DNA of 61,630 nucleotides, counting the filler. It is 6 parts of 6 records of this genome, joined end to end, with 100 filler letters (N's around TTAATTAATTAA, not from the genome) between each part and the next. Parts side by side here need not be neighbours in the genome. Positions count along the whole stretch, not along the records: positions 50,921 to 61,630 come from DRR723986_13850; 5 more parts are not named here. One strand, given 5' to 3'. The notes below the pieces were generated by a model. It did no database searches. It was not told where the DNA came from and saw nothing but the letters and a program-made list of their open reading frames with translations. Each line of letters opens with the position of its first letter. The first letter of the stretch is position 1. Made by a program: the position numbers and the translations under genes. Below are positions 9,118-61,630 of the stretch, piece after piece.

Positions 9118-9217
9118 NNNNNNNNNNNNNNNNNNNNNNNNNNNNNNNNNNNNNNNNNNNNTTAATTAATTAANNNNNNNNNNNNNNNNNNNNNNNNNNN
9201 NNNNNNNNNNNNNNNNN
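9118..9217. other. Artificial contig spacer
   Basis: 44 N + TTAATTAATTAA + 44 N; the same spacer occurs five times. Confidence 0.98.
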
Positions 9218-22369: not shown

Positions 22370-22469
22370 NNNNNNNNNNNNNNNNNNNNNNNNNNNNNNN
22401 NNNNNNNNNNNNNTTAATTAATTAANNNNNNNNNNNNNNNNNNNNNNNNNNNNNNNNNNNNNNNNNNNN
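22370..22469. other. Artificial contig spacer
   Basis: N44-TTAATTAATTAA-N44. Confidence 0.98.
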
Positions 22470-29866: not shown

Positions 29867-29966
29867 NNNNNNNNNNNNNNNNNNNNNNNNNNNNNNNNNN
29901 NNNNNNNNNNTTAATTAATTAANNNNNNNNNNNNNNNNNNNNNNNNNNNNNNNNNNNNNNNNNNNN
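29867..29966. other. Artificial contig spacer
   Basis: N44-TTAATTAATTAA-N44. Confidence 0.98.
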
Positions 29967-35671: not shown

Positions 35672-35771
35672 NNNNNNNNNNNNNNNNNNNNNNNNNNNNN
35701 NNNNNNNNNNNNNNNTTAATTAATTAANNNNNNNNNNNNNNNNNNNNNNNNNNNNNNNNNNNNNNNNNNNN
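35672..35771. other. Artificial contig spacer
   Basis: N44-TTAATTAATTAA-N44. Confidence 0.98.
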
Positions 35772-50820: not shown

Positions 50821-50920
50821 NNNNNNNNNNNNNNNNNNNNNNNNNNNNNNNNNNNNNNNNNNNNTTAATTAATTAANNNNNNNNNNNNNNNNNNNNNNNN
50901 NNNNNNNNNNNNNNNNNNNN
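50821..50920. other. Artificial contig spacer
   Basis: N44-TTAATTAATTAA-N44. Confidence 0.98.
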
Positions 50921-50921
50921 A

Positions 50922-51245
50922 TTTGAACCCGGAGAGGCGGGCGGCTGCCAGGCGTTTTTCCTGTTCCGAAACGAGGCTGGCAAAAGCTTTGAAGGCTTCG
51001 AGATGAGCCTTGCCATTCTGGATTCCCAAGGGGTGATTGACCGGCTTTTGTCCATTGACGCGGCCCCCCTTCCGATTGAACGCACCACGCTCAAACTGTT
51101 TGCGATCCCGGAGATCGCCTGCACAGATATCTCTGAAATCCTGCTGCACGATATCACGACCTGTAAACCGCAGAACGAGGCCGAACTTGATTGTTTTGCG
51201 TTCCTCAAACTAAACAGCAAGACATCCACAAAGTTGGTCAAATAA
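50922..51245 (+). CDS. Cys-containing exbBD-associated hypothetical protein, 5'-truncated
   Basis: Frame is open from 50922 (FEPGEAGGCQAFFLFRN...DSQGVIDRLL...C...C...C); stop lies 3 nt before the exbB-like gene. Confidence 0.7.
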   Translation, partial: FEPGEAGGCQAFFLFRNEAGKSFEGFEMSLAILDSQGVIDRLLSIDAAPLPIERTTLKLFAIPEIACTDISEILLHDITTCKPQNEAELDCFAFLKLNSKTSTKLVK

Positions 51246-51248
51246 CCG

Positions 51249-51872
51249 ATGTTTGGCTTGCTTGAAAGCATCGGAACCGGCGGGCCTATCATTGCCGTAC
51301 TGATTGTGTTGTCGGTGTTTTCCCTGACTTTGATCGCTGTGAAAACCCTGCAACTTTGGCCCGTCACTTCGGGTGCGGACCTGCGTATAAGTGCGATTGA
51401 GAAATATGCCGCCGGGGATGTTGCAGCGGCCACATCACAAGCCTCAGGCGGTAAGGCGCCCGCAGATCGCGTTCTGAGCTATGCGATGCAGGCGTTAAAG
51501 GATGGGTATTCCGGCCCGCCTTTGATGACTGAACTGACCCGCCGCGGGAACGAAGAATTTGCCCAAATGAACAAGCAAATCCAGTTTCTGGAACTCATCG
51601 CGATGATTTCACCGCTGATTGGCCTGCTTGGCACGGTATTGGGCATGATCCAGTCCTTCCAGGAATTGGAACTCGCCCAAGGCGCGGCCAATGCCTCCGT
51701 GCTGGCGGGCGGCATTTGGCAGGCGCTATTGACCACCGCCGCTGGCTTGCTCGTCGCGATCCCTGCGGCGGTCGGGGCGTCCCTGTTATCGTCCCGTGCA
51801 GAACGCGGGGCGCAATGTATCGAAGGGGCCATCGCGCAGTTGATGTTGGTCCACGAACATAACCCAAAGTGA
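51249..51872 (+). CDS. MotA/TolQ/ExbB proton channel protein
   Basis: SPLIGLLGTVLGMI, GIWQALLTTAAGLLVAIPA. Confidence 0.93.
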   Translation: MFGLLESIGTGGPIIAVLIVLSVFSLTLIAVKTLQLWPVTSGADLRISAIEKYAAGDVAAATSQASGGKAPADRVLSYAMQALKDGYSGPPLMTELTRRGNEEFAQMNKQIQFLELIAMISPLIGLLGTVLGMIQSFQELELAQGAANASVLAGGIWQALLTTAAGLLVAIPAAVGASLLSSRAERGAQCIEGAIAQLMLVHEHNPK

Positions 51873-51882
51873 GGCGGCAGGC

Positions 51883-52323
51883 ATGACCGATGATCCTGCC
51901 CAACTGCTGCACCGGCCCAAACGGCCCAAGGCCCTGATCTCCATGGTGCCGATGATTGATGTGATGTTGATTTTGCTGATCTTTTTTATGGTCACATCAA
52001 CCTACATCAATCTGGACATGATCCCGGCGCTGGAACGCAGCGCCGATGCCACTGCCGACCCGCAGCCAACGCAGGGTGATGGAGGCGGCGTTTTGATGGT
52101 GCGGATCGCGGCTGATGGCACCCCCACCATACGCGGACAGGCCTACGCGCAAACCGATCTGGAAAGGCTTTTTGCGGACCGCATTCGCCAAGATGCAAAC
52201 CAGCAGGTGCTGATCCTGCCCTCGGGTTCTGCCAATATGCAGGCGCTGGTTTCAGTCATGGATACCGCCACCCTATCTGGCGTCACCCAATTGCAAATTG
52301 TTCGATTGGATGCCTCGCCATGA
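51883..52323 (+). CDS. ExbD/TolR family protein
   Basis: MVPMIDVMLILLIFFMVTS with the conserved TM Asp. Confidence 0.9.
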   Translation: MTDDPAQLLHRPKRPKALISMVPMIDVMLILLIFFMVTSTYINLDMIPALERSADATADPQPTQGDGGGVLMVRIAADGTPTIRGQAYAQTDLERLFADRIRQDANQQVLILPSGSANMQALVSVMDTATLSGVTQLQIVRLDASP

Positions 52324-52736
52324 GGTTGGCCCGCCGCCCATCCCGCGCACCGCCAGAAACCATCGTGGCCTTGATCGATGTGGTCTTTTTTCTGTTGGTG
52401 TTCTTCATGCTGATTGGCCGTATGGATGCCACAGCGCCTTTCGACGTCACCCCACCAGTGGCCGTTACCGGCGCGGATATGCCTTCAGGTGGAATGACCG
52501 TTTCGGTCTCTGCCAAGGGTGCATTGGCCCTGGACGGTCTTGCCGTGACATTGCCGCAACTGGACACGCGCTTGAAGCAAGCCTTGGCCGACGCCCCGCA
52601 AACCCTGGTCCGCATCAACGCCCACAGCACCGTGGAATTGCGCCATGTCTTGCCCCTGCTCAGACGGATCGAAGGATTGGGCGCACAAGAAATCGCGTTG
52701 GTTGTGACGCCCGAACAGCATGATGCAAACCGATGA
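52320..52736 (+). CDS. Second ExbD/TolR family protein
   Basis: IVALIDVVFFLLVFFMLIG with the conserved TM Asp; ATGA overlap. Confidence 0.9.
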   Translation: MRLARRPSRAPPETIVALIDVVFFLLVFFMLIGRMDATAPFDVTPPVAVTGADMPSGGMTVSVSAKGALALDGLAVTLPQLDTRLKQALADAPQTLVRINAHSTVELRHVLPLLRRIEGLGAQEIALVVTPEQHDANR

Positions 52737-54319
52737 TGCGGGGCGGGGCACTTTGGGGCGCAGGGGCGTTGACCTCACTTGCGGCGCATGCCGGCGCGGC
52801 GGCTCTCTTGGTCTGGGCCATCAATCCAAGCCCGGTTGAAGATCAGCCAAAACCGCAAACCAAATTGAACATGACAACATATCAGGTGGCCCGCAGCCAG
52901 GCCGTTGAGGCCACGCCGGACGTGGCCCAAGCGCAGCAAAGCACCGCAGATGCCCGTACACTTGCGGCCTACGGTCCTGCGCTGCAACGCGCTCAGACGA
53001 TGCAGGCCAAGCCCGACAAAGCCGCGCAATCCCAGCCAAAATCGCTTAAAACACCGCAAATTACAGCGCCATCAACACCGCTGGCAAACGCCGCTGATCA
53101 GTATACAACCCACATTGAGCAAGGCCAGACCTCGCCCCCGGCCAATAAGGCGCAGCCCCTAGATTTGCCGACCACCGCGCTCGTGCAATCCCTATCCGTG
53201 CAAAGCGACGTTCAGCCCGTATCACTGGTGGCAGCCGCGCCGCAGACCATTTTTGCCGCTGTGGTGCCCATCCAAGCGATCGTACCGCAGCGCCCCGCCA
53301 ATGAAACGGCCGCATTGGTCGTGCCAGCGACATCAGCGGCAGTGCCGCCCGCGCAACTTGACCCGCGCCCTGCCCCCGCCGCTGTGTTGCCAAGCGTCAC
53401 CGCCACAACGGAGGCCCCGCAAACGGTCACAAGCGCCGATGTGCCTCTTTCGGCGAACCCTGCCGCCACGTTGGCCCTGCCCGCATTCAAAGCCCAAGCC
53501 AAACTGGCCTTCGCTGCATTGGGCGGCGGATCGGTTGATCCGGTTTCACTGGCCGCTTTCCAAAGTTTCATGCAACCGGGCGATCTGGATGGCGCGTCGA
53601 ACAGCGTCAAAGACGACCTCGCTTCGGTGATCGGCGGAGTGCCGTGCTCTCGGGTGCAAGTTCGGTTTGACCCTTTGGACAATGCGCTAATCGTGTCGGG
53701 CCATGTGCCGCAAGACGCCCTGCGTGGATCAGTGCTTCAGGCGATGCAGGACAAAATGGGCGCTGATATTCCGGTGCTGGACAACTTGCTGATCCTTCCC
53801 AGCCCCCAATGCGGCGCCTTGGCCGGCATTGCCGGTGTCGGCCTGCCCCAGTCCACCGATCAGATCACCAATCCGCTGTTGGTGGGCGATGACACGCACG
53901 CCAAGGAATTTCGATATGTGGCGGATCAACCGATGGTATTGACCCTTCAGGGCGCGGATTACGATGCCTATGTTTACGTCGACTATTTTGACGCCGCGGG
54001 GAACGTCCTGCACCTGCTCCCCAATGCTCACACGCCGATGACACGCGCCCCAAAAAAATCCGCCATCAAGGTCGGATCGGACCGCGCATTACAGCCCGGA
54101 GAGCCGGGATTGTTCTTGAAAGTTGGCCCGCCCTACGGTCAGGAAATTGCAGTGGCTTTTGCCGCATCTGTGCCGCTGTATGAAGGGGTGCGCCCCCTGA
54201 GCGAGCCTGCCGCGCCCTATCTCGATTGGCTTACGGACAAAGTGGCCGATGCCAGAGCGGCACATCCAGACTTCAAAGGCGAATGGGTCTATTTCTTTGT
54301 GTCCACCTCGGCCCAATAG
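52733..54319 (+). CDS. TonB/TolA-like membrane anchor + Pro/Ala linker + C-terminal DUF4384-like domain
   Basis: TM with SxxxH (TSLAAH); about 220-aa low-complexity linker; Cys-pair domain; YVYVDYFDAAGNVLHLLPN...VGPPYGQE pattern. Confidence 0.8.
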   Translation: MMRGGALWGAGALTSLAAHAGAAALLVWAINPSPVEDQPKPQTKLNMTTYQVARSQAVEATPDVAQAQQSTADARTLAAYGPALQRAQTMQAKPDKAAQSQPKSLKTPQITAPSTPLANAADQYTTHIEQGQTSPPANKAQPLDLPTTALVQSLSVQSDVQPVSLVAAAPQTIFAAVVPIQAIVPQRPANETAALVVPATSAAVPPAQLDPRPAPAAVLPSVTATTEAPQTVTSADVPLSANPAATLALPAFKAQAKLAFAALGGGSVDPVSLAAFQSFMQPGDLDGASNSVKDDLASVIGGVPCSRVQVRFDPLDNALIVSGHVPQDALRGSVLQAMQDKMGADIPVLDNLLILPSPQCGALAGIAGVGLPQSTDQITNPLLVGDDTHAKEFRYVADQPMVLTLQGADYDAYVYVDYFDAAGNVLHLLPNAHTPMTRAPKKSAIKVGSDRALQPGEPGLFLKVGPPYGQEIAVAFAASVPLYEGVRPLSEPAAPYLDWLTDKVADARAAHPDFKGEWVYFFVSTSAQ

Positions 54320-54340
54320 GTTCGGCGGATCATCATTGGC

Positions 54341-54850
54341 TTAGCTCTCAGCAGCAGTGTCGCGCCGACGCTGGCGACGGCCCAGTTGGCTATATTTGGT
54401 GTGCATGACGTTTACCGCGCCCTGGGGTTTGAAATCCTTGTCAGGGTGCCAGCACACCACTGCCTTACCCTTCAGGTTGACCTCAAAAAGCGTACCCTTC
54501 CACACCGTATATTTGGCCAGTGTTGCGGAATAGCTGGGTTCGTTCACCAATTCGATATAGACCGCCAAACGGTGATCGCGGTTTTGTTCGATCACCGCCA
54601 CCAGCGTATCGGCATCTCTTGAATAGGCGTTCTGTGCGCTCTTGAAAACCAGCCCCCGCACAACATCGATCACGTGCGAGATCACACCGACCTGATCGCC
54701 AAATTGAATGCCGGGGATGGCAGCATAAGCGTCCAGCACATCGTCAATCCAGCCCAGTTGCATCGCCTTATCAAGGCGGCCCGAAAGATCTTTGGCCAAT
54801 TGATCCAACCCGCGGGATTCCAGATTATGTAGCCCTTGAGACTTTGCCAT
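54341..54850 (-). CDS. Hypothetical cytoplasmic protein
   Basis: Long ORF filling the gap, convergent on the DUF4384-like gene; no recognisable motif. Confidence 0.55.
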   Translation of the reverse strand: MAKSQGLHNLESRGLDQLAKDLSGRLDKAMQLGWIDDVLDAYAAIPGIQFGDQVGVISHVIDVVRGLVFKSAQNAYSRDADTLVAVIEQNRDHRLAVYIELVNEPSYSATLAKYTVWKGTLFEVNLKGKAVVCWHPDKDFKPQGAVNVMHTKYSQLGRRQRRRDTAAES

Positions 54851-55076
54851 ATCGTTTCCGGTGCTGCTTATGCGGCCCATTCTAGCACAATCAGCTCAAA
54901 CGACGAAATCCGGCCACATCCGGCTATTGATCACAATCAACTCTCCCGCCTGCCTTGCTTTGTTTTTCCGACAGGCTTAGCATCCACCGGATAACTCCAA
55001 TCGTTTGAGCATCTCACACCGCGCAGCAACATGTGTGGTTTTACTGCTCAAATTCTCAGTGGAAAGCGCTGTTACA

Positions 55077-55781
55077 ATGATTTCAAATAAGTATACCCGC
55101 ATTGCTGTTGGCCTCTTCGCACCTTTTGGTTTGGTCGCGACGCCGGTTTTTGCCAACAACTCTCAATCCTCCTTGCCCTCCAATTTTCAAGACAGGCAGG
55201 CAACCGCGATAGAACTGATTTACCCACGCTATGCACAGGTCGGCGGTCAGCCAATTGAGCCTGAGTATGAAATGGAAGAGGAAGAAGGCGAAGGCCCCAT
55301 CGGGCACGAACCCGAGATTGAGGCAACGGACGCTCAAACCGCGGCCTTTGTTGCACAGATCCAGCAAATCGGAGACATCTGCGAAGCCTCGCCAGAAGAA
55401 TACCAGATCGGTTGTTACGCCGCGATGTACCGCGAACTGGCAGCCGAAATTCCGGCGAATGGTGAATATGATGAGGTTAAGGAAATCCTTGAAGACACAG
55501 CACGTGATCTCACCGCATTGACCCGCGCAAACCGGGACAAGACCAAGCCAAGAGTGCGCGTCAGCGCCACCAAAAGCAGCGGCCAGACAGTGACCACGCC
55601 GCCGATCACCCCCGTCAAGCCAGAGACAATTGTCCCGCTGCGGCAAGCCGCAGTAAATGTGTTGGAGGAGGCTGAAACCAAGCTGCTCCGCTCGGCCAGT
55701 TCAGATGCCAAACGGGCGATCCACTATCAAAAGATTGCGGCGGCAGTTGGATCAAACAAGGTTCTGCTCCGATCCGCGTAG
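55077..55781 (+). CDS. Secreted helical hypothetical protein
   Basis: Signal peptide ending VFA-N; acidic stretch; Cys pair (CEAS...IGCY); followed by a hairpin at 55817-55844. Confidence 0.7.
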   Translation: MISNKYTRIAVGLFAPFGLVATPVFANNSQSSLPSNFQDRQATAIELIYPRYAQVGGQPIEPEYEMEEEEGEGPIGHEPEIEATDAQTAAFVAQIQQIGDICEASPEEYQIGCYAAMYRELAAEIPANGEYDEVKEILEDTARDLTALTRANRDKTKPRVRVSATKSSGQTVTTPPITPVKPETIVPLRQAAVNVLEEAETKLLRSASSDAKRAIHYQKIAAAVGSNKVLLRSA

Positions 55782-55842
55782 GCGGGCCAAAACAATTCGG
55801 ACTTAGTAGATAGGCAAGGGCCGGCCTTCAAAAGGGTCGGCC

Positions 55843-57354
55843 TTACCCGTCTGTCAGGCCATAGGCCGCGCGAATGCTGCGGTTGGTGCCGGGGCCAAAA
55901 TCGCCATCAATGCTGCCCCCGTAAAACGCGTTGTTCTTCAGAAGTTTTTGCAACTCGCGGCGGGTCTCTTCTTTGAACATGGTGGGCCGCTCCAACAACA
56001 GGTTCAGCACATCCTCACTGCCCGACCGCAGCGCCGCATAAAGGTATCCAGCCGCCTCTGGTGGGCCTTTCTTGGCAATCAGTCCGTCGTCAATCAGCGC
56101 TGCAAAATTGAACTGCGCCTCAGGCTGGCGCAAATCTGCGGCTCGTTCAAACAGCTCAAGCGCCTTGGCCGGATCGGCCCGCAGGCCCAAGCCACCTTGA
56201 TAGTACAAGAACCCAAGATCATTGATCGCATCGGCAAAATCCTGATCCGCTGCGGCGCGGTAAAGTTCAAGCGCACGTTTCTCGTCAATCTCGACGCCGA
56301 GGCCCTGTTCAAAGAGTTTGGCCAGTTCCATCTGCGCCTCAGGCGACCCCCGCGCGGCGGCACGTTCCAGAAATTCCACCGCCGCAGCAGGATCAAAACG
56401 CGGATCTTCGGGGTTCAACCGGATATAGGCCAAACCCAGCATGGAGCGCGTATCGCCAAGATCCGCCAGCGCCAAAAGCTGCGATTCCTGATCCGGGCGC
56501 AGCTTGGACCATGCGGTCGCTGGCTCCGCGTTTGAAATATCAGGTTGGCCCTTGTTGTTGCCAGACAAATAGAACGGCGTGCCCGACAGGCTGCCGTAAG
56601 TATGCGGCTCTTGCAGATTGCCGGTTTCGCGCAGAACCGCATCGCGGACCTGGCGGAACATCAGGCTGATCTCCAGTCCCGGTTCTGCCATCTTGTCAAT
56701 CAATGCACGAGCATAGGGGCTGTTGCCACGATTGCCATCAAGCGCGACCTGACCGTCCTTGGCCGCAAAGGCGACCAATGTACCACGGTCCGGGTTTGCC
56801 GCCGCGAGACCACCAACACCGCGCGTGGCCTCGTCCACCGGTTGTTGGTTGGCGGCCTCCGTTTGCGCAAGGCTGATCCCGCCGCCCAAGGGGTTGTTCC
56901 GGCAACTGTCGAGGATCACGATCCGCATTTTGCGGGCGCGCTCCACCACGGACAGCATCTCTTTGAGGGAAATGGACTGCTGCTGCACTTCGTCATTGCT
57001 GCGGGGTCGTGCATCGACGGGAATCAAGAAATTCTCGCCCTGAACTTCGATGCCATGCCCGGCGAAATAGACCAAAGCCAGATCGGCGGTTTCCGACCGA
57101 AACGCAAAATCCCGCATCATTTCGCGCAACTCGGCAGCGGTCTTGTCAAGGCCCAGGGTCACATCAAAACCGATATCGGTCAGGGTTTGCGCCAATGCCT
57201 CAGCATCGTTGCGGGTATTGGTGAGAGGCTCAATCGATTGATACTTGGCCATGCCCAAAACCAGCGCGACCCGATCAGGGCTGGCATTGGCCAGACCAAC
57301 GGTCCCCGCGCAAAACGCCAAAGCCATGAGAAACATGCGCAGCAGAGTATTCAT
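55843..57354 (-). CDS. Secreted caspase-family (C14) peptidase with Sel1 repeats and C-terminal peptidoglycan-binding domain
   Basis: Signal peptide; RVALVLG, YFAGHG, ILDSCRNNP (His/Cys dyad intact); Sel1 repeats (AQMELAKLFEQGLGV, AINDLGFLYYQG); YGGSIDGDFGPGT. Confidence 0.9.
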   Translation of the reverse strand: MNTLLRMFLMALAFCAGTVGLANASPDRVALVLGMAKYQSIEPLTNTRNDAEALAQTLTDIGFDVTLGLDKTAAELREMMRDFAFRSETADLALVYFAGHGIEVQGENFLIPVDARPRSNDEVQQQSISLKEMLSVVERARKMRIVILDSCRNNPLGGGISLAQTEAANQQPVDEATRGVGGLAAANPDRGTLVAFAAKDGQVALDGNRGNSPYARALIDKMAEPGLEISLMFRQVRDAVLRETGNLQEPHTYGSLSGTPFYLSGNNKGQPDISNAEPATAWSKLRPDQESQLLALADLGDTRSMLGLAYIRLNPEDPRFDPAAAVEFLERAAARGSPEAQMELAKLFEQGLGVEIDEKRALELYRAAADQDFADAINDLGFLYYQGGLGLRADPAKALELFERAADLRQPEAQFNFAALIDDGLIAKKGPPEAAGYLYAALRSGSEDVLNLLLERPTMFKEETRRELQKLLKNNAFYGGSIDGDFGPGTNRSIRAAYGLTDG

Positions 57355-57680
57355 AACAAGCCAACTTTCTGAATTTCCCGACGACAGCTTTATCATAGGG
57401 GGATCACTTGACCGCACTATACACCTTTTTTTGAACTGGTGCAGCCACCTGGATAGAGGTGCTCACGGGGCAAGAATACTTGACTCGTAGCCAAATTCGT
57501 CCTCTGCTCAGACCATAGTCCGGGGGGCAGAATGGTGCTTATTCCATCTCTTCAAGCAATTGGATCACGCTGAAACACCGCAGCCGCGCGTATTTTCAAG
57601 GCGCTTTTCGGTGCAATTGTACCGCGCAAATCCCGCTTCTGGGACAGCGATAACAACATTAGATTGAAAGTTGGTCTGCC

Positions 57681-60600
57681 ATGCCCGATGATTTTGATGC
57701 CTCGCTAGAGACCACAGGTTCCGTCGCGATTGGCAGTGCGACAACCGGGGTGATCGAAACCATTGGCGATCAAGATTGGTTCGCCGTTTCCATGCTGGCC
57801 GGTCAAACCTACGAAATCCGCATCGATGGCATCTACAGTGACGATCTCAACACCCTCTTTGATCCCTTTTTGCGGGGGATCTATGACAGCGGCGGCCTGG
57901 CCATTCCTGGTCAAGCTGATGACGAAAGCGACCCTGCAACCCGCAGTGCCAGCTCGACCTATACCGCCGCCTACAGTGGTCAACATTTCATCGCGGCATC
58001 TGCCTATAATCAGGGCACCGGCAGCTATACCCTTTCGGTCAGTGACCTTGGTACCTTTGACGACTATGCTTCCAGCACCCTGACAACCGGCAGTGTATTT
58101 GCCGATGGCTCGGCATATGGCACGTTTGAAGCGCAGGGCGATTCCGATTGGTTTCGCATTGATCTGGTTGAGGGTGTCACCTACCGATTTGAACTGTTCG
58201 GCGATGGTTTCGGCACGTGGGCAACGGCCCCCGCGGTCAGCTTTGGCTTGTTGCGTGGTGCCAATGGTGATGCGATTTCCGGCAGCCTGGATATCGGCGG
58301 CGCCGGCCAATTTCCGGTCTCAACCTTTTTCGAATACACCGCCACCTATTCTGGCGCCCATTATGTTGATGCCTCGGCCTCCGGCTCTGATGTCGGGCGC
58401 TATCAGCTTGATATCACAGATCTGGGATATTTTGATGACTACAGTGACAGCGATTTCGCACCCGGTTTCATAGCCGTAGACGGCAGTACCACTGGAGAAA
58501 TCGAAGCGGACGGCGATGTCGATTGGATCGAGGTCATGCTGACGGCTGGCGAGACCTATGACATCTACGCTTTGGGGTTGGACACGGCTGATGGCACTTT
58601 GGATTTTCCCGTCATCGAAGCCCTAATCGACCCGCTGGGATCAGTTGTCCCATATGCCTTTAACGGCGGTGCATCTGGCGGCAACAGCGCCCTGCGCTAT
58701 CTCGCGACCGCTTCGGGTGTTCATCACATCGCGATTGCATCCTACATCGGCCATACCGGCACCTATACCGTTGAGGTCGACGAAATTGCGATAATTGATG
58801 ACTATGGCAACAACCCGTCAAGCGATGGTCATCTGCCGATCAACGCCGCAGTCGGCGGCGAGATTGAAACCCCTTTCGATCAGGATTTCTTTCATGTCGA
58901 ACTGACCGCTGGCACGATCTATCAGTTTGATCTCAACAGCTTTGGTGTGGTCGATCCCTATATTCGCGGTCTCTATAGCTATGCCTGGAACAACTACTAT
59001 AACCATCCTGACAACCTGATCCCGGGCACGGAAAATGATGATATTGCAGACGGCATTCTGGACAGCCGGATCACCTTTACCGCCCCAACCACCGGGGATT
59101 ATTTCATCTCCGCCGGTGCCTTTTCTTCGACCACCGGGTTTTACTCGCTCAGCCTGCTGACGATCGGGTCTGCGACAGATGATTATGCCAACACCGCCCT
59201 CACCACTGGCGCCTTGACCATTGGCGGGAGTGTAACCGGCACCAACGAAACCGAAGACGATGAGGATTGGTTTGCCGTCACCTTGGACGAAGGGTTTATC
59301 TACACCTTCACCCTGCTTGGCGAAGACAGTTACCTGTCCGATTTCGATCTTCCGGCCTTGCGCGTTTATGCCCCCTCCGGTTTTGAAGCCTTTGGCGTAA
59401 GCGATGAAAACTTCACCTATAATTATGGCCAGATCACATTCACCGCCAATGAATCCGGCACCTTCTATATCGCTGTAGGTGACGATGGCGCACAGAACGG
59501 CACGGGGTATTATCAGCTCAGCGGATCGCTTGTTGGCCCACTGGACGACTTTGCCGGCGACACCAGCACCACCGGCACCTTTAGTCCGGGCGGATTTGAC
59601 AACACCCATGTCACCGGCACCATCGAGACCTTTAACGACACCGATTGGTTCGCGGTCTCGCTGATCCAGGGCAACCTCTACGACATCCACCTCAAGGGAG
59701 AGGAAACCGGCGTCGGAACCCTCGAAGATCCTTTGTTCGTTGGGGTATATAATATCCAAGGGGCCTTCCTTGGTGGCAGTGACGACGACAGCGGCGAAGG
59801 CCTTAACAGTTTCTCCACCTATGAGGCCACCTATACCGGAACCCATTATTTCGCGGTCAGCGCCTCGCCCAGCGAAGGATCGGACACCGGCAGCTATGTG
59901 CTGCAATACGATGACCTTGGCCCTGCCTTTGACACTCCACTGCTGGATGAGACCGTAAACGAAGGGGAAACCTACACCGCCAATCTGACGCTTGAGGATG
60001 TCGGCTTTAGCTCTGACACGGTGATCGATTGGGACGTGACAAGTGTTCTTTTTGCAGGCACCGCCCTGTCACCGGATGACTATATTTTCACCAGCAGTGT
60101 CGATGACACACTGGAAATCTCGGTGCTGGCCGTGGACGATGACCGGATAGAGGACGACGAGACCCTCACCATCGACGCAAGCGGTTATGTGGATTGGGTT
60201 GGTCCGGCGGGCGGCAATGGCGGCGCGACCTATGAAAACGTCAATGGCGAGCAGGTTTTTGGCCAGTTGCAGCGCACCGAGGTTGACCTGTCACTCGACT
60301 TCACCATCAACTCCGCCCCGGAAGGCGCCACCAACGAAATTTTTGATTACCAATTCGACAGCCCCGAGGTGATCGGGAATGTCTTGATCGAATACCTCGA
60401 CGGCAGCGGCGAATCCTTCTCCGTTTTGCCCTTCACCTTTGGCGGGGCACTGACCGGATCTTTGTCGGCCAACGGGGATATCACTGTGACAGACGCCGCC
60501 GCGTCCCCTGGCTCGCGGCTGGTCATTCCGTTCACTGTGATCGACTCGCGCGGCGCCACCACACAAGGCAGCCAGTTCATCACGATGGCAGAGCTGACCG

Positions 60601-61630
60601 ATGATTTCCTGCCCGGCATCGATGCCACCCAATATGGTGATTTGACCCTTGATCTTGCCGCCACAGGCAGCATCGAAACACTTGGAGATCGCGATCGGTT
60701 TTTGGTCTCATTGGAAGCAGAACAAGTCTATTCCCTTTCACTAACCTCGTCGGATCTGGGCAACACCCCCCTACCAAACCCTGAAATCATTGGTCTTTTT
60801 GATCCCCAAGGCTTTTTGGTCGGCGGCACCTCAGATGACGACAGCGGCACCGGAAATAATGCCCAAACCTCCGCCTTCACAGTCGCGGTGGATGGGGTTT
60901 ATGAGGTCGAGGTCGCGGGTTCTGGTGATCTAAGCACCGGAGACTACGCATTGACAGCCACCTCTCTGGGCGCGGTTGATGATTATCTGCCGGGGCTGTT
61001 TGCCACCTCATTTGGGGCCATCACCATTGGCCGAGGGGCAACGGGTCGATTGGAAACCGAAACCGACCGCGACCGGTTCACTGTTGAGCTGACCGCAGGC
61101 CATACCTACGAGCTGAACCTGACCAGCAATGGTATTTCAAATGATCCACTGCTGAACCCTGAACTTTACGGTGTATTTGACCCATTGGGCACATTGGTGG
61201 CGGGCACCACCGATGATGACAGTGGCCTGGGGTCTGATGCCCGTGTCGACATCTTTCGAGTCACCGCAGATGGGCTATATGAAATCGAGGTCGGATCATC
61301 CGGCGACGGCTTTGCGGGCGACTATGCCCTCACCATCGACACAAAAGATGATTTTCTGCCAAGCACCGCCGTGGAAATCCCCCCCTCACGATTTGGGACA
61401 TTGGCACCGGACAGTACTGCCGAGGGTCACATCGACTTTGACGGCGACCGCGACCGATTTACCGTCGATCTGACCGCGGGCGAATTCTATGCACTCTCTG
61501 TGACCGGTACATCCGGCATCAGCGATCCCTCATTGATCGGCGTATTTGACAACGAAGGCGTCATGGTCAGCGGCACGGCGGATGGCGATGACGACCCTGT
61601 CCTCGACGGGATTGTGCCGATCTTTTCGGT
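57681..61630 (+). CDS. Very large acidic surface protein with tandem PPC-like repeats, 3'-truncated
   Basis: ATG 57681 (MPDDFDASLETTG...). The frame reads open at every point checked to the window end and is absent from the ORF track, consistent with no stop. At least nine ~125-aa DD(F/Y)...DxDWF/DRDRF...GxY repeats. Confidence 0.88.
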   Translation, partial: MPDDFDASLETTGSVAIGSATTGVIETIGDQDWFAVSMLAGQTYEIRIDGIYSDDLNTLFDPFLRGIYDSGGLAIPGQADDESDPATRSASSTYTAAYSGQHFIAASAYNQGTGSYTLSVSDLGTFDDYASSTLTTGSVFADGSAYGTFEAQGDSDWFRIDLVEGVTYRFELFGDGFGTWATAPAVSFGLLRGANGDAISGSLDIGGAGQFPVSTFFEYTATYSGAHYVDASASGSDVGRYQLDITDLGYFDDYSDSDFAPGFIAVDGSTTGEIEADGDVDWIEVMLTAGETYDIYALGLDTADGTLDFPVIEALIDPLGSVVPYAFNGGASGGNSALRYLATASGVHHIAIASYIGHTGTYTVEVDEIAIIDDYGNNPSSDGHLPINAAVGGEIETPFDQDFFHVELTAGTIYQFDLNSFGVVDPYIRGLYSYAWNNYYNHPDNLIPGTENDDIADGILDSRITFTAPTTGDYFISAGAFSSTTGFYSLSLLTIGSATDDYANTALTTGALTIGGSVTGTNETEDDEDWFAVTLDEGFIYTFTLLGEDSYLSDFDLPALRVYAPSGFEAFGVSDENFTYNYGQITFTANESGTFYIAVGDDGAQNGTGYYQLSGSLVGPLDDFAGDTSTTGTFSPGGFDNTHVTGTIETFNDTDWFAVSLIQGNLYDIHLKGEETGVGTLEDPLFVGVYNIQGAFLGGSDDDSGEGLNSFSTYEATYTGTHYFAVSASPSEGSDTGSYVLQYDDLGPAFDTPLLDETVNEGETYTANLTLEDVGFSSDTVIDWDVTSVLFAGTALSPDDYIFTSSVDDTLEISVLAVDDDRIEDDETLTIDASGYVDWVGPAGGNGGATYENVNGEQVFGQLQRTEVDLSLDFTINSAPEGATNEIFDYQFDSPEVIGNVLIEYLDGSGESFSVLPFTFGGALTGSLSANGDITVTDAAASPGSRLVIPFTVIDSRGATTQGSQFITMAELTDDFLPGIDATQYGDLTLDLAATGSIETLGDRDRFLVSLEAEQVYSLSLTSSDLGNTPLPNPEIIGLFDPQGFLVGGTSDDDSGTGNNAQTSAFTVAVDGVYEVEVAGSGDLSTGDYALTATSLGAVDDYLPGLFATSFGAITIGRGATGRLETETDRDRFTVELTAGHTYELNLTSNGISNDPLLNPELYGVFDPLGTLVAGTTDDDSGLGSDARVDIFRVTADGLYEIEVGSSGDGFAGDYALTIDTKDDFLPSTAVEIPPSRFGTLAPDSTAEGHIDFDGDRDRFTVDLTAGEFYALSVTGTSGISDPSLIGVFDNEGVMVSGTADGDDDPVLDGIVPIFS

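Follow-up and report, generated by a model that had tools for sequence, protein, structure and literature searches.

The question raised by this locus is what a Ton/Tol-type motor acts upon when the protein that it would move does not end in a TonB domain. The locus is a five-gene operon on the plus strand (positions 50,922 to 54,319) of a 61,630-nucleotide stretch of DNA, referred to here as the window, and it encodes in order a small secreted protein with four Cys residues, an ExbB-like protein, two ExbD-like proteins and a TonB-like output protein of 528 amino acids. We conclude that this module is a Ton/Tol-type motor whose output domain and partner system are both new. That partner, a type VI secretion system (T6SS) with its kinase PpkA, lies beyond the contig break and is a stronger link than either the caspase-like protein or the giant surface protein, which the initial annotation had offered as possible targets. 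The best reading of the module, which on balance appears probable from sequence comparisons, is a transducer driven by the proton-motive force that feeds T6SS control.

The window consists of six contigs joined by spacers of N's and stop codons, and only positions 50,921 to 61,630 are contiguous with the motor operon; the genome of Sulfitobacter mediterraneus DSM 12244 (G001, locus L001), which is 92% identical in the 528-residue protein, served as a stand-in for the context beyond this contig. All five open reading frames (ORFs) were recovered as initially annotated and are tightly coupled, with successive junctions of 3 and 10 nucleotides followed by two overlaps of 4 nucleotides each. All related loci with sufficient sequence, four copies distant from a T6SS among them, carry these five genes in an unchanged order. 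The exbB-like gene (51,249 to 51,872, 207 amino acids) encodes a MotA/TolQ/ExbB proton-channel subunit (PF01618, 102 bits, cut-off 22.9), and is followed by a first exbD-like gene (51,883 to 52,323, 146 amino acids; PF02472, 73.2 bits, cut-off 25.4) and a second (52,320 to 52,736, 138 amino acids; PF02472, 70.7 bits, cut-off 25.4) that overlaps the first by 4 nucleotides. Both ExbD proteins retain the expected transmembrane Asp (Asp26 in ExbD1 and Asp20 in ExbD2), and this residue is kept in 34 of 34 loci for ExbD1 and in 35 of 35 for ExbD2. Among the NCBIfam models, tolQ was nearest to the ExbB protein (75.5, cut-off 221), which also scored 56.3 on exbB (cut-off 206) and is the equivalog of neither, and tolR was nearest to both ExbD proteins (52.5 and 37.3, against an equivalog cut-off of 127.3).

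The gene for the output protein (52,733 to 54,319, plus strand) overlaps exbD2 by 4 nucleotides. The only N-terminal hydrophobic helix of this protein is a membrane anchor at residues ~7-29 (52,751 to 52,819) that carries S15xxxH19, and the linker at residues 35-253 (52,835 to 53,491) is rich in Ala (21%), Pro (13%), Gln (11%) and Thr (11%), in agreement with the earlier description of a TonB/TolA-like helix with SxxxH and a long Pro/Ala linker. The spacer of Escherichia coli TonB consists of Pro-Glu and Pro-Lys repeats, unlike the Ala/Pro-rich linker here. Conservation of the His in homologues, on which the initial annotation had made its proposal depend, is evident on two scales. SxxxH lies within the first 50 residues of 68 of the 83 representatives of the family; at least five of the other 15 have SxxxN and one has TxxxH, and most of the others start inside the linker and are apparently truncated. 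In the related loci that were fetched, the anchor Ser is present in 17 of 17 and the His in 17 of 18, with Asn instead in one; Asn is said, in a paper on E. coli TonB, to be the only substitution tolerated at His20 of that protein.

Searches with the full-length protein returned 591 matches in 90% clusters, with relatives in Roseobacter-group genera, annotated only as 'DUF4384 domain-containing protein', and the C-terminal 275 residues as query retrieved 932 cluster representatives at E ≤ 0.001, of which 218 were at E ≤ 1e-30. Since homologues range from ~430 to 760 amino acids and the C-terminal 275 residues are constant, it is the linker that varies in length and the tip that does not. One copy of the gene, beside tssC in genome G279 (C29:4-764), is broken by stops (three TGA and one TAA) at a contig edge, which could mean a pseudogene or a faulty assembly.

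An AlphaFold2 model of these 275 residues (mean predicted local distance difference test score, pLDDT, 91.4) places two domains at the tip. The first is an alpha-beta-beta-alpha-beta domain at residues ~286-355 (53,588 to 53,797) that is BON-like or ring-building-motif-like, with Cys305 inside it and Cys360 after it; these are the only two Cys of the protein, and both are invariant in 84 aligned sequences. The second is an immunoglobulin (Ig)-like beta-sandwich with one long helix at residues ~370-528 (53,840 to 54,316), in which residues 409-479 match DUF4384 (PF14326) at 29.2 bits (cut-off 27). Pfam BON_like (PF21923) scored 20.9 bits on the protein, under its cut-off of 24.1, and there was no Pfam match to TonB_C (PF03544) or the TolA families at E ≤ 0.1, nor any to the TssJ family (PF12790). 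The claim that the protein ends in a Cys-pair domain and DUF4384, not in TonB_C, is therefore upheld. The best fold match of the BON-like domain is CdsD (4qo6), a periplasmic ring-building domain of type III secretion (Z 8.1, root-mean-square deviation 2.1, 62 aligned residues, 21% identity), and the domain also fits EscJ and two BON proteins, DolP and OsmY (Z 5.8-6.3); the likeness sits at the tool's border for a common arrangement. For the beta-sandwich the matches were generic (Z ~6), to Ig, pilus-chaperone and macroglobulin domains. Foldseek found no match to the model of the C-terminus in the PDB at E ≤ 0.001, and the folds of TssJ, TonB_C and TolA were not among its best 50 fold matches.

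The first gene of the operon is represented in the window by its 3' two-thirds (108 codons, 50,922 to 51,245, plus strand), with a frame open from the first base of the contig and the 5' end lost at the contig break. The complete orthologue in S. mediterraneus (L001:8040-8513) is 94% identical to the window ORF and has a signal peptide, and 29 orthologues share a mean column identity of 75% and four invariant Cys residues. The model of the small protein is a beta-sandwich (pLDDT 93.8) whose best fold match is E. coli IrmA (PDB 5ek5; Z 11.4, root-mean-square deviation 2.9, 109 of 120 residues), with the runner-up at Z 8.1. In the protein Atlas its nearest clusters are IrmA-related (score 0.96), and 10-95% of the members of these clusters carry PF18673, the Pfam family of IrmA. 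The two proteins appear alike in their beta-sandwich fold; they differ in sequence (11% identity), and the four invariant Cys belong to the small protein. Pfam gave no match, PF18673 included, to the small protein of either the window or L001, and Foldseek gave none for the model in the PDB at E ≤ 0.001. We know of no link of IrmA to a motor or a T6SS.

With the Ton system (TonB-ExbB-ExbD) the module shares ExbB and ExbD proteins with a transmembrane Asp, an SxxxH helix, a proline-rich spacer and organization in one operon. It differs in lacking TonB_C and a nearby receptor, in its second ExbD paralogue and its additional secreted protein, and in its BON-like plus DUF4384 tip and its T6SS linkage, and most carriers have separate canonical Ton systems: canonical ExbB and TonB_C pairs were found elsewhere in four of five carrier genomes, and the genome of the closest relative gave no TonB_C match at all. 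TolA likewise has an SxxxH anchor and a long periplasm-spanning region, and tolQ and tolR are the best models for the ExbB and both ExbD proteins here; unlike a Tol-Pal system, however, the module scores far under the equivalog cut-offs, and the C-terminal family of TolA, tolB, pal and ybgF were not found in the locus. As initially reported, no TonB-dependent receptor, tolB or pal is among the Pfam matches of positions 50,921 to 61,630, and no TonB-dependent receptor was found in the contig or in the examined flanks of related loci. To judge from these proteins, the module combines an ExbB channel, two distinct ExbD proteins with a proton-carrying Asp and an SxxxH partner of the TonB/TolA coupling kind, and is most readily understood as a dedicated Ton/Tol-type motor and not as a surplus component of an ordinary Ton system. 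The linker is predicted to be long and flexible and could span the periplasm.

What lies upstream of the contig break can be seen in S. mediterraneus. There the operon is preceded by the remainder of the small-protein gene and, in divergent orientation, by a methyltransferase-like gene and then tssA, tssB, tssC, hcp, tagJ, tssE and tssF; beyond these come tssG, clpV, vgrG, a DUF6931 gene, fha, tssK, tssL (whose product has an OmpA domain), tssM, tagF and pppA, after which ppkA, on the opposite strand (convergent), and an OmpA-family gene follow. No tonB, receptor, tolB, pal or ybgF was found in this locus, so the initial reservation that a canonical tonB or receptor just past the break might account for the motor genes falls away. 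By tblastn, no T6SS genes were found on the other contigs of the window. Among 32 related loci, 26 have tssA upstream of the operon, and 25 of these show further genes towards tssF, the exception (L014) being a contig end; hcp was under the search cut-off in two of the 26. The remaining six loci end less than 1.9 kb from the operon or inside it, and are too short for T6SS linkage to be judged. In genome G218, a second T6SS subtype (TssC 56% identical, TssJ present) is preceded immediately upstream of tssA by the five-gene operon in the same direction. Conserved linkage to T6SS core genes, as expected of T6SS accessory (Tag) genes, was found in 26 of the 32 loci and again in this second, independent arrangement, and linkage to two T6SS subtypes in two arrangements makes hitch-hiking alone a hard explanation. 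As a separate observation on these clusters, a 1330-residue protein encoded just upstream of vgrG in genome G020 (L049:45-4037) combines a domain resembling VipB/TssC (E 2e-42) with a weakly VipA/TssB-like stretch, and many T6SS clusters of the Rhodobacteraceae contain, 10-16 kb from tssC, a second PF05943 match like it.

The link to the T6SS extends to the output domain itself. In genome G180, a T6SS kinase encoded between pppA and the cluster end has a C-terminal domain that is 31% identical over 226 residues to the C-terminus of the 528-residue protein (E 5e-30), with both Cys of the tip aligned. PpkA of S. mediterraneus has a membrane helix near residue 330 together with a kinase domain and a periplasmic part of 380 residues, and matches the profile of the 528-residue family (hhalign probability 90.9%, E 1.2e-6, 225 columns) as well as the DUF4384 core (BLASTP E 2e-6). 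The periplasmic domain of PpkA here is BON-like plus DUF4384; that of Pseudomonas aeruginosa PpkA is of the von Willebrand type. Since precomputed Pfam annotation of these kinases contains kinase domains only, the relationship between the tip and PpkA is invisible in databases. Among 401 genomes sampled across the class, only S. mediterraneus and one other had the strong full-length form, with weak matches in eight further genomes. In another alphaproteobacterial family, a kinase beside a T6SS cluster and next to tssA carries the BON-like and DUF4384 domains (L066, G614). In two genomes outside the Rhodobacteraceae (L064 in G361 and L065 in G661), the same domain module belongs to proteins of 593 residues encoded next to a PP2C phosphatase, and no T6SS genes were found within 20 kb. 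One of the four weak-match loci inspected had no matching neighbour in its flanks, and ExbB or ExbD was found near none of the four. From these comparisons the tip is best described as a BON/ring-building-like domain and a DUF4384 beta-sandwich, apparently held by a conserved Cys pair and paralogous to the periplasmic domain of PpkA. The simplest history would be that the kinase sensor domain is the older form and that, within the Rhodobacteraceae, a copy of it was joined to a TonB-like anchor.

We also examined how the module and the T6SS are distributed over 301 evenly sampled genomes of the family, calling the 528-residue protein at E ≤ 1e-10. Of these, 30 have the 528-residue protein and 77 have TssC; TssC was found in 29 of the 30 carriers, in one of these 29 only by a weaker match of the second type. 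The gene lies within 8 kb of tssC on the same contig in 18 of the 30 carriers and 25 kb from tssC in one; in six it is on a different, possibly short, contig; in four it is clearly unlinked (more than 700 kb away on one contig in two, and on other large contigs in the other two); and the one carrier with no TssC match has the gene on a short contig. Among the genera with carriers are Sulfitobacter, Ruegeria, Leisingera and Marivita, all of the marine Roseobacter group, and some of them are genetically tractable.

In the transducer that we favor, the stator would pull on or turn the 528-residue protein using the proton gradient. Since the tip is paralogous to the periplasmic domain of PpkA, we infer that it binds either the envelope ligand or partner of PpkA or PpkA's own domain, and membrane energization or envelope state would thereby be coupled to the phosphorylation switch of PpkA, PppA, Fha and TagF by which T6SS assembly is licensed. 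The small IrmA-like periplasmic protein would be the likeliest direct partner or ligand carrier of the arm. A more specific version, in which the arm is pulled by an ExbB/ExbD1/ExbD2 stator and the force that it exerts on a shared envelope partner or on the PpkA domain sets the time and place at which PpkA permits T6SS assembly, is a tentative suggestion that we regard as rather doubtful in its details. A complex prediction for the periplasmic part of PpkA with the C-terminus of the 528-residue protein, made without the supplied alignments or controls, scored 0.00 (mark 0.34) and is uninformative either way.

Envelope proteins on the periplasmic side of PpkA are known to time or place T6SS assembly, namely TagQ and TagR in the H1-T6SS of P. 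aeruginosa and TssW in Acidovorax citrulli (PMC13584744, PMC12607579). The TagQRST-PpkA-PppA-Fha pathway of P. aeruginosa and the TssW-PpkA-Fha pathway of A. citrulli resemble the cluster here in PpkA, PppA and Fha, and TagF is present here as well; unlike the module, neither pathway includes an ExbB/ExbD motor or a TonB-like protein. A 2026 review of T6SS accessory factors (PMC13584744) has no occurrence of ExbB, TolQ, MotA, 'proton motive' or DUF4384, and a preprint presenting an atlas of bacterial kinases contains a single mention of DUF4384 and none of T6SS or PpkA. We found no description of the module in the literature searched, with subscription journals and supplements outside the search, and none of the papers on DUF4384, judged by title and the start of the abstract, concerned a T6SS. 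Ton/Tol-type 5:2 motors drive import across the outer membrane, gliding and type IX secretion and sustain envelope integrity, and in the searched literature no description was found of such a motor tied to a T6SS. If the more specific version is correct, it would be the first case of motor-coupled T6SS control and a new output class for Ton/Tol-type motors. Envelope sensing by the T6SS kinase is an open question outside Pseudomonas, and a sensor domain on a force-transmitting arm offers a testable handle on it. DUF4384, which in the literature searched has served only to label orthocaspases and kinases, gains a defined genomic setting.

Several observations nevertheless weigh against a role in T6SS control. 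Four of the 30 carriers have the operon, with its five genes in order, unlinked to a T6SS and flanked by housekeeping genes. The module is present in only 29 of the 77 TssC-positive genomes, and four similar T6SS clusters that were checked directly lack it beside tssA, so it is dispensable for a T6SS as such; in addition, these counts ignore shared ancestry. On the side of the kinase, the link to PpkA consists of one strong pair and several weak ones, and homology between the tip and PpkA is a matter of common descent, from which a common ligand or contact does not follow.

The unlinked copies and the optional occurrence of the module among T6SS clusters are what would be expected if it were a T6SS-independent envelope system, such as a Tol-like outer-membrane tether or an energizer of import or export, that merely shares the T6SS island, and the fold of the small protein, of a generic periplasmic binding type, would also suit such a system. 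We consider this explanation unlikely, since a T6SS is present in 29 of the 30 carriers and in 77 of the 301 genomes overall, since the operon is linked to two T6SS subtypes in two arrangements, and since its output domain is common to a T6SS kinase.

If the operon is instead tied to the T6SS, as its linkage indicates, it could also be a structural or energizing part of the T6SS envelope complex, which would help to cross or re-seal the peptidoglycan or the outer membrane or would replace TssJ by docking to TssM. The type IX secretion system is driven by a related motor (GldLM/PorLM), the BON-like domain resembles secretion-ring motifs (CdsD at Z 8.1, EscJ at Z 5.8), and the five carrier genomes first checked all lacked a match to PF12790 (TssJ). 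Over the 77 TssC-positive genomes, however, the module and TssJ show no complementarity (both in 3, the module only in 26, TssJ only in 11, neither in 37), and the cluster of the second subtype holds the module and TssJ together; the idea that the module substitutes for TssJ was rejected on this distribution. The tip is moreover shared with a kinase and not with a structural Tss protein, and its sandwich gave generic Ig-type matches only. A structural role is thus quite improbable, and the transducer feeding T6SS control remains the reading that we prefer.

Least probable, and to our mind scarcely to be expected, is that the motor activates or releases one of its downstream neighbors: a Peptidase_C14 gene does lie convergent and just downstream in 26 of the 32 loci, and DUF4384 is given, in the parts of the papers available, as an accessory domain of bacterial orthocaspases, but the caspase gene is absent from the unlinked operons and the second-subtype cluster, its product has no similarity to the C-terminus of the 528-residue protein and differs in its own C-terminus between loci, and the giant protein with its pre-peptidase C-terminal (PPC) repeats is a neighbor in only 4 of the 32 loci. 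Of the original proposal of a distinct energized machine possibly acting on these proteins, the dedicated Ton/Tol-type motor without TonB_C is thus retained, and neither protein is upheld as the likeliest target.

The caspase-like (Peptidase_C14) protein, which also has Sel1 repeats and PG_binding_1, is encoded on the minus strand at 55,843 to 57,417, and its true start may be at 57,495, up to which the L001 orthologue aligns; its position does not imply that it belongs to the module. In the 26 related loci that have it the gene lies at most 10 kb downstream of and convergent with that for the 528-residue protein, and it is missing from L052-L056. Sel1 and PG_binding_1 at the C-terminus were found in the window, and none was detected elsewhere. 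PADLOC assigned the protein to its generic caspase model only, and matched none of the five operon proteins as anti-phage defence. Sharing of the DUF4384 module by the caspase was considered and rejected, since the neighbors gave hhalign probabilities of 0.3% and 0.1% against the C-terminus of the 528-residue protein. A YceI and OmpA protein of ~350 residues follows the caspase in seven of eight annotated loci (L008, L010, L012, L017, L019, L022, L026 and L032), and in three others (L004, L005 and L007) the caspase neighborhood is replaced by two-partner secretion genes, for an ShlB-type transporter and a TpsA-like protein of 1700-1800 residues. The giant protein (57,681 to 61,628, plus strand) has at least five PPC domains, with internal repeats of 44-46% identity, and runs off the window end; its counterpart in L001 exceeds 2210 residues. 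Two further ORFs, neither of which matched a Pfam, NCBIfam or PADLOC family, lie between the operon and the caspase gene: one of 179 residues on the minus strand (54,341 to 54,880), with a match in L001 only, and one of 258 residues on the plus strand (55,005 to 55,781), with matches in 7 of the 32 loci.

Finally, the spacers between the contigs of the window are N runs around TTAATTAATTAA at positions 9118-9217, 22370-22469, 29867-29966, 35672-35771 and 50821-50920. The GC content of the six contigs ranges from 0.43 to 0.62, a spread indicating that the pieces may not share one organism. Two 151-base contigs (depth 2) from one public run labelled as RNA fall within the linker, and a run guessed to be RNA contained five short pieces; both indicate presence only and do not imply transcription. 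Near-identical DNA occurs in public runs labelled as biofilm, aquaculture, plastisphere and algae metagenomes, in eight runs with at least half of the sampled words.

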